The translations under genes and the position numbers were made by a program. Positions 15,053-16,677 of a stretch of DNA of 64,000 nucleotides are shown piece by piece (the stretch's first letter is position 1; every line of letters starts with the position of its first letter). The notes beneath the pieces are model-generated. The model made no database searches. It had not been told where the DNA came from and was given only the letters and a program-made list of their open reading frames with translations. Source of the stretch: Eledone cirrhosa (Eukaryota); NCBI GenBank assembly GCA_964016885.1, contig OZ024742.1, positions 118,482,001 to 118,546,000 of the forward strand, in the 5' to 3' direction.

Positions 15053-15617
15053 ATATATATATATATATATATAATATATATATATAATATATATGTATAA
15101 TATATATATATATAATATATATATATATATATAATATATATATATAATATATATATATAAAATATATATATAATATATATATATAATATATATAATATAT
15201 ATATATAATATATATATATATAATATATATATATATATATATATATATATATATATATATATATATATATATATATATATATATATATATATATATATAT
15301 ATATATATATATATATATATATATATATATATATATATATATATATAATAAACGGAAAAAATGAAACGAAATTTCATTTCCCACACTTAGTACGGCTGTT
15401 ACTTAAATATAAGTATGTACACGTACATACATATATGTATACAGACGTACAGTAGTATGTATATATATATATACATATATGCACATATATATATATGTAC
15501 GTATGGATTCACCGAACATTTATTATAATGCTCGGTGTGTTTGTAAACAAACATCCCGTATTAAGCCGTAGTGTCTAGCAACCATCGTTGCTCGTTTGTT
15601 CAACACTGACAAAGGAA

Positions 15618-15658
15618 CGCTGTACTAGTTTCAAGCTTATTAGCTATCGTCAGCAACG
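15618..15658 (-). ncRNA. Minimal type I hammerhead ribozyme
   Basis: CGTTG-CTGACGA-TAGCT AATA AGCTT-GAAA-CTAGTA/CAGCG: stem I CGTTG/CAGCG, palindromic stem III ACTAGT, GUA site. Confidence 0.85.
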
Positions 15659-16031
15659 TGTACCTTCCTGCCAGATAATTGAACGTTTGAAAGTATATAC
15701 TTTCCTTATGCATATTAACGGCTGAGTAGCCCAATTTGCATATCGAGTGGGTTAATCGGCCGGGTGCACTGAAAACGATAAACGGAAAAAATGAAACGAA
15801 ATTTCATTTCCCACTCTTAGTACGGCTGTTACTTAAATATATGTATGTATACGTACATACATATATGTATACAGACGTACAGTAGTATGTATATATATAT
15901 ACATACATGCACATATATATATATATGTACGTATGGATTCACCGAATATTTATTATAATGCTCGGTGTGTTTGTAAACAAATATCCCGTATTAAGCCGTA
16001 GTTGCTCGTTTGTTCAACACTGACAAAGGAA

Positions 16032-16072
16032 TACTGTACTAGTTTCAAGCTTATTAGCTATCGTCAGCAACG
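16032..16072 (-). ncRNA. Minimal type I hammerhead ribozyme, second tandem copy
   Basis: Same core; the stem I 3' arm is CAGTA instead of CAGCG. Confidence 0.8.
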
Positions 16073-16380
16073 TATACCTTCCTGCCAGATGATTGAACGT
16101 CTAAAAGTATATACTTTCCTTATGCATATTAACGGCTGAGTAGCCCAATTTGCATATCGAGTGGGTTAATCGGCCGAGTGCACCGAAAACGATGAACGGA
16201 AAAAATGAAATGAAATGTCATTTCCCACTCTTAGTAACAGCCGTTTCATTTTTTCCGTTTATCGTTTTCGGTACCCCGGCCGATTAACTCACTCGATATG
16301 CAAATTAGGCTGCTCAGCCGTTAATATGCATAAGGAAAGTATATACTTTCAGACGTTCAACTATCTGGCAGGAAGGTATA

Positions 16381-16421
16381 CGTTGCTGACGATAGCTAAT
16401 AAGCTTGAAACTAGTACAGCG
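16381..16421 (+). ncRNA. Minimal type I hammerhead ribozyme, inverted copy
   Basis: CGTTGCTGACGATAGCTAATAAGCTTGAAACTAGTACAGCG. Confidence 0.85.
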
Positions 16422-16677
16422 TTCCTTTGTCAGTGTTGAACAAATGAGCAACGATGGTTGCTAGACACTGTACGGCTTAATTCGGGATGTTTGTTTACAA
16501 ACACACCGAGCATTATAATAAATGTTCGGTGAATCCATACGTACATATATATATATGTGTGCATGTATGTATATATATATATATATACATACTACTGTAC
16601 GTCTGTATACATATATGTATGTACGTATACATACTTATATATATACATGTATATATATATAATATATATATATATAA

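Follow-up and report, generated by a model that had tools for sequence, protein, structure and literature searches.

A Non-Coding Hammerhead-Bearing Tandem Repeat of Eledone cirrhosa Carries the Insertion Signature of Penelope Elements

In the genome of Eledone cirrhosa, a family of ORF-less tandem units that each carry one minimal hammerhead shares the insertion signature of Penelope elements (PLEs). Our analysis centers on a two-armed insertion at positions 15348-16640 of a 64,000-nucleotide stretch of contig OZ024742.1 (hereafter the window). Arms of this family have two fixed 3' ends, and every two-armed insertion in which both ends can be classified pairs one end of each kind, a rule that we also find in a protein-coding PLE family of the same genome. 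Given that the non-coding unit and the autonomous PLE show one end rule, we regard the unit as a non-autonomous, Penelope-mobilized element, and we place at about 0.85 the probability that the reverse transcriptase (RT) and endonuclease of a protein-coding PLE write it into (TA)n.

Results

The insertion is bounded on the left by a (TA)n microsatellite (15053-15347) and on the right by a TA-rich target that is followed by an unrelated LINE fragment (16641-16679). Both outer ends of the two-armed insertion adjoin TA repeats, and a target-site duplication is unreadable because the insertion sits within (TA)n. We number unit positions along the hammerhead strand, with the predicted cleavage site as origin. 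The main arm (15348-16236, minus strand) is composed of 2.1 tandem units and runs from unit position 231 (16236) across two junctions to position 275 (15348), its RNA-sense 3' end, which we term the long end. The inverted arm (16242-16640, plus strand) comprises 0.92 unit, from position 255 (16242) to approximately position 219 (16640), and its outer end is termed the short end. The two arms meet head to head at 16226-16244, where two microhomology switches of 4 and 3 nt were recognized by eye. The initial annotation described two tandem units plus an inverted third, and the spacings of 430 and 414 nt agree with that description: the unit is 430 nt long with a GC content of 36.5%, and copy 2 is short by 16 bp, a deletion that brings the interval from one tandem cleavage site to the next down to 414 nt (15623-16036, minus strand). 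This interval is predicted to fold far better than its shuffles (z -6.1).

The initial annotation also reported no coding remnant, and a tblastn search of positions 15348-16643 with four PLE proteins, which returned no match at E ≤ 1, points the same way; the unit lacks the ORF with RT and GIY-YIG endonuclease that characterizes an autonomous PLE. The octamer ATGCAAAT is present at 15734-15741 and 16148-16155 on the minus strand and at 16298-16305 on the plus strand. Approximately 40 nt downstream of the first of these lies a TATA-like palindrome (15690-15703), and judged from sequence the two may constitute a candidate internal promoter. The octamer is common to the sister family described below and altered in a young 422-nt subfamily. 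A separate 5'-truncated insertion at 10429-10639 (plus strand), 96% identical to an older subfamily and without a hammerhead, has its long end in (TA)n; this is the diverged partial copy that had been placed near 10430-10632.

Other repeats are found in the vicinity. The LINE fragment directly right of the insertion extends over 16680-19056 and has an RVT_1 match. Further PLE fragments are located in the window at 23914-25278, 32505-34130, 20882-21286, and 14624-14984. Another type I hammerhead family, unrelated to the unit, forms an inverted pair around (TA)n at 41560-41800 of the window, with cores at 41579 (plus strand) and 41766 (minus strand), a long palindromic stem III, and relatives in loci L002, L016, L053, and L064. 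Flanks contain at least five more hammerhead-like repeat families (L006, L065, L094, L107, L010, and L066), and several of these combine (TA)n ends with a stem III that is a 4-nt palindromic variant. Full PLE copies are present in L189 (784 aa, 3.5-kb unit) and L190 (a 784-aa ORF after an overlapping 455-aa ORF, 4.7-kb unit). The 5' region of the L189 family also recurs as short fragments without an ORF; these resemble a very short derivative and lie between (TA)n stretches at 41221-41437, 26456, 34268, and 36000 of the window and occur in many other loci as well.

Each unit contains one minimal type I hammerhead with a palindromic ACUAGU stem III. The three copies at the locus are found at 15617-15659 (minus strand, predicted cut between 15623 and 15622), 16031-16073 (minus strand), and 16380-16422 (plus strand). 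In each of them we recover the CUGACGA...GAAA elements, the ACUAGU stem III, and the GUA site noted previously, at 15653-15623 and 16067-16037 on the minus strand and at 16386-16416 on the plus strand. Stem I, which had been given as 5 bp, is 6 bp long in copy 1 and in copy 3, whereas two substitutions shorten it to 4 bp in copy 2. Stem II, 4 bp long in copy 1, begins with U.U in place of the usual G-C pair. Rfam returned no match at E ≤ 10 over 15560-15800, and the 150 best matches listed for the whole window are microsatellite-driven and include no hammerhead; the hammerhead assignment therefore rests on the motif and on covariation. Among 11 motifs drawn from the unit and its related genomic families, both partners vary in 11 of the 13 proposed base pairs, and the covariation score is reached by none of 500 shuffles; this is support, not proof, since the structure was drawn from these same sequences, which are related. 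Conservation of the hammerhead core scarcely exceeds that of the remaining unit sequence (rare changes of 0.84% versus 0.77-1.17%).

Two hammerheads joined through the ACUAGU palindrome form a double hammerhead with a predicted energy of -20.6 kcal/mol for intact copies, versus -12.3 for the local tandem pair. We incline slightly toward real but slow dimeric cleavage of intact copies. The initial annotation further proposed that cleavage at both tandem sites of the locus would release a 414-nt monomer. The predicted spacing is correct, but release would be unlikely, because stem I of the upstream hammerhead (copy 2) is only 4 bp.

The family is abundant in the 3.0-Gb host genome: exact matches to two 31-nt cores number 10,046 and 2,710, compared with 0 for the controls, and the reversed pattern of the 10,046-fold core gives 0 occurrences genome-wide. 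Copies are dispersed, mostly 1-1.6 units long, and 5'-truncated with variable 5' ends. The median arm comprises 1.13 units, and 16 of 195 arms reach at least two units, a share of multi-unit copies that is estimated from samples. The copies form several subfamilies, including the young 422-nt subfamily, whose arms contain up to seven near-identical units (0-3 differences per 240 sites). The unit has a colinear homolog, a non-coding 466-470-nt sister family with 9,278 cores, which indicates that the lineage has long been ORF-less. An old subfamily forms a one-strand array of 43 kb with 37 cores (L221, L265-L268, and L222; G000:C2:60568886-60611863) that is interrupted by insertions, including a PLE that lies within the TA hairpin inside the unit. 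Contigs of four runs yielded low-depth matches in organisms B and C, which were considered as a sign of a wider host range and were not counted as evidence.

We examined arm ends in an unselected sample, the first 100 listed core matches on contig C1 (first 42 Mb), which merge into 80 loci. This sample contains 131 arm ends located away from the locus edge, of which 55 are long (positions 257-277), 49 are short (205-226), and 27 fall elsewhere. The two fixed 3' ends, at approximately 219 (short) and 275 (long), are 56 nt apart. TA-rich sequence then follows 86 of the 104 fixed ends versus 9 of the 27 other ends, and genome-wide the long end forms 1,975 exact junctions with TATA versus 2,055 read-through copies. 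The 80 loci include 39 two-armed head-to-head insertions, 17 with a broken or unclassifiable end; in all 22 with both ends fixed, one end is long and the other short (p 2e-7). The same pairing was found in 7 of 7 cases in a second set (11 pairs, among them the insertion at 15348-16640). A third set of 25 pairs yielded 13 long-short combinations, one with an uncertain short end, and a single apparent short-short combination that is a truncated arm; a fourth set, counted by eye, yielded 14 long-short combinations and none of like with like. The unit shows the hallmarks of PLE insertion, namely partial tandems, 5' truncation, an inverted arm, a tail at one end, and a (TA)n target.

As a control we used a young PLE family of the E. 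cirrhosa genome that is autonomous. Its two-armed insertion at 28974-32189 of the window has one long and one short end. The 4,011-nt tandem unit of this family contains a 738-aa ORF and a hammerhead approximately 190 nt upstream of the ATG, and wherever both ends of a two-armed insertion are visible (14 of 14), one arm ends at approximately +145 and the other at +52 to +58. The 738-aa protein has no Pfam or PDB match, and its identity as a PLE protein therefore rests on RT and endonuclease motifs read by eye and on its look-alikes in the Atlas, which carry the GIY-YIG, RVT_1, and HTH_animal families. A first look for the endonuclease part of this family gave 62,075 candidates. Mobilization by PLE machinery, as suggested in the initial annotation, is supported by this match between the insertion ends of the unit and those of an autonomous family. 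Given that the rule also holds for a 4-kb autonomous element, it is no evidence for a circular template.

Whether one RNA or several served an insertion can be approached through subfamily alleles. The arms of one insertion share these alleles in 33 of 36 pairs, versus about half of between-locus pairs; mixing of subfamilies is seen in 3 of 36 arm pairs and in 3 of 44 tandem arms. At 15348-16640, four linked non-CpG subfamily sites and two further positions distinguish the inverted arm from the main arm, and two different subfamily RNAs likely served the two arms of this insertion. At the young locus L337, three variants are present in 10 aligned units on both arms and in none of nine other loci, the pattern that repeated copying of a single monomer would leave; later homogenization is also possible. 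A five-unit arm at L061 (1337-3273) alternates between two types (A-B-A-B-A) that differ by 0-0.7% within type and by 4-5% between types, for which dimer duplication, a dimeric circle, and an assembly artifact are candidate explanations. The inner parts of the arms at L011 are identical (0 of 208 sites) and the outer parts differ (5 of 111), probably as a result of gene conversion near the palindrome center. Gene conversion and DNA-level duplication (L011, L046, and L061) limit inferences about templates.

Arms stop just 3' of the cut site in 8 of 41 cases versus 3.1 expected (p 0.015), an excess that hints at some linear, cut templates. For the young 422-nt subfamily at least, we see roughly even odds that a circular RNA was a template. 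A defined transcript start at positions 390-401, a short distance upstream of the hammerhead, was considered and rejected: 9 of 38 5' ends in second or later units fall in this interval versus 1.65 expected (1 of 135 in the first unit), the interval was picked after viewing the data, and the pile-up did not recur in 20 new multi-unit loci (0 of approximately 23 multi-junction arms, counted by eye). Rare variants outside the TA-rich hairpin show no A-to-G strand bias (57 versus 54) that would mark an RNA-editing scar.

Discussion

We propose that the unit is copied into (TA)n by a helper PLE protein that would nick both strands of the target. One DNA end would prime on the RNA at approximately 219 and the other at 275, each cDNA would then run back over the hammerhead site for approximately 0.2-2 units (up to seven in the youngest subfamily), and the two cDNAs would join head to head through microhomology. 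The template would be a multi-unit or circular RNA, with one RNA usually serving both arms. The accessible text on a lizard PLE studied in vitro reports that both strands were primed and that RT began at two internal sites, with uncut RNA as the main substrate and no strand preference of the start sites (PMC11167929). By analogy with minimal PLE hammerheads (PMC4209133, as far as its accessible text describes them), cleavage by the hammerhead of the unit would be slow and would require a dimer. We are doubtful of a more elaborate version, an obligately asymmetric complex of two enzymes in which one target strand would always prime at the near site and the other at the far site, and which could hold two RNAs joined via the palindromic hammerhead stem, like co-packaged retroviral genomes; if it were true, the insertion at 15348-16640, with arms of different subfamilies that still follow the long-short rule, would be a direct record of an RNA heterodimer.

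Regarding the helper, the unit has no homology to five PLE families (L149, L189, L190, L222/L269, and L270) of a genome that holds more. Linkage of the unit to an ORF at L057 and L222 was rejected, both cases being nested insertions. In locus L225 (3178-5763; G000:C2:353741000-353748500), a long-end arm of the element stands head to head with a truncated PLE arm that ends at the short site of its own family, and the junction contains a 16-bp duplication. This single case is possibly a mixed insertion that points to the helper; a nested insertion plus a deletion fits equally well.

PLE mobilization leaves the form of the template to be considered, and under a strict rolling-circle scheme, the model of the initial annotation and of Cervera and de la Pena, a cleaved monomer is closed by ligation and each insertion has a single monomeric circle as its template. 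The long arms of near-identical units in the young subfamily, the locus-private variants found in all units of L337, L345, and L335, and the crossing of the cleavage junction by most arms all fit this scheme. It does not readily accommodate the arms of different subfamilies at 15348-16640, the other mixed arm pairs and tandem arms, the alternation at L061, or the mosaic at L333; moreover, the median arm is only slightly longer than one unit, a 4-kb autonomous family obeys the same end rule, and the stops 3' of the cut suggest some linear templates. We consider strict rolling circle conceivable, though with the balance tipped somewhat against it.

Two further explanations would dispense with an independently mobilized unit altogether. 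The unit may be the terminal repeat and tail of an autonomous PLE, nearly every copy of which has lost its 5' part, given that its insertion signature is the PLE signature and that rare autonomous helpers could escape a survey of approximately 170 loci out of thousands. Upstream, however, arms enter another unit and never a shared ORF, the PLE ORFs near copies are the nested insertions at L057 and L222, arms extend to as many as seven units, and the lineage includes a colinear non-coding sister family. The initial annotation had raised this prospect, none of the copies examined is the terminal repeat of a PLE ORF, and we judge the explanation improbable. We give even less credence to a satellite or MITE-like repeat that spread at the DNA level and in which the hammerhead is incidental. 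Local array growth on C2 (37 cores over 43 kb) and the identical or alternating units of L046 and L061 would suit such a repeat, but copies that are dispersed, fixed at the 3' end, variable at the 5' end, and often inverted bear the marks of retrotransposition, the inverted arms vary in length and are not terminal inverted repeats, and the helices covary across families. The arm ends of the unselected sample and the autonomous control already refute this explanation in large part.

Mobilization by a PLE thus remains our preferred reading, and it places the unit among known systems, which we compare here with the accessible portions of the cited papers. The unit works like a non-autonomous PLE and falls within the working definition of a non-LTR retrozyme given in the accessible text of Li et al. 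2026 (10.64898/2026.07.22.740005). The suggestion in the initial annotation that the family is possibly undescribed holds for the sequence family but not for its kind, which has been published (PMC7229834; 10.64898/2026.07.22.740005); neither this sequence family nor a strict long-short rule is described in the literature that we searched, supplements and subscription papers lying outside the search. Like non-LTR retrozymes, the unit is a non-coding tandem repeat of a few hundred bases with low GC content and one type I hammerhead per unit, and it coexists with PLEs (PMC7229834; 10.64898/2026.07.22.740005). Both papers propose PLE mobilization, in their accessible text without the insertion-structure footprint that we provide at scale. 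Unlike the non-LTR retrozymes described there, copies of the unit are for the most part scattered 1-1.6-mers that include inversions and stop at two fixed ends, and its hammerhead is minimal with a palindromic stem III, whereas the kind tested in 2020 was canonical, a type I hammerhead described with contacts between loop 1 and loop 2 (PMC7229834). Li et al. 2026 derive animal retrozymes from PLEs, and the sample given in the accessible text covers 31 vertebrates, three insects, and one anthozoan, with no mollusc (10.64898/2026.07.22.740005). A parent PLE terminal repeat is reported there for 24 of 57 Xenopus families; we found none for the unit.

The hammerhead itself resembles the minimal hammerheads of PLEs, which have a short palindromic helix III, are predicted to act as dimers, and show low activity in vitro (PMC4209133, accessible text). 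Helix III of the unit is likewise short and palindromic, with predicted dimer action; the hammerhead of the unit differs in its short helix II and in lacking the conserved G10.1-C11.1 pair, which is U.U in the unit, and the 466-470-nt sister family retains G-C at this position. Li et al. 2026 accept minimal hammerhead motifs and, in the text accessible to us, report that just one of the 9 dimers they predicted was cleaved (10.64898/2026.07.22.740005). The unit is also similar to Chlamys elements such as MRC1, which are ORF-less PLE derivatives with head-to-tail multi-copy insertions; according to the accessible text, elements of that type have no canonical hammerhead and their 3' sequence is also found in an autonomous family, and in these respects the unit differs (PMC8557442).

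The likeness to endonuclease-bearing PLEs extends to partial tandems, an inverted 5'-truncated arm, (TA)n or AT-rich targets, a tail that is often confined to one end, a hammerhead within the repeat, and two internal RT starts (PMC8557442, PMC3846280, PMC11167929), again as set out in the accessible portions of these papers. The unit differs from them in having no ORF and in its tail of 56 nt, compared with 30-40 nt. To the comparison with retrozymes and PLEs we add an autonomous family as control for the end rule, together with evidence that a single insertion can draw on two different RNAs. The pairing of long with short ends and the arms of mixed subfamilies constitute testable predictions for the in vitro PLE system, as that system is described in the accessible text (PMC11167929). 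In the PLE literature accessible to us, the tail is optional or often one-sided; in the family described here, it is present on exactly one arm of every classifiable two-armed insertion.
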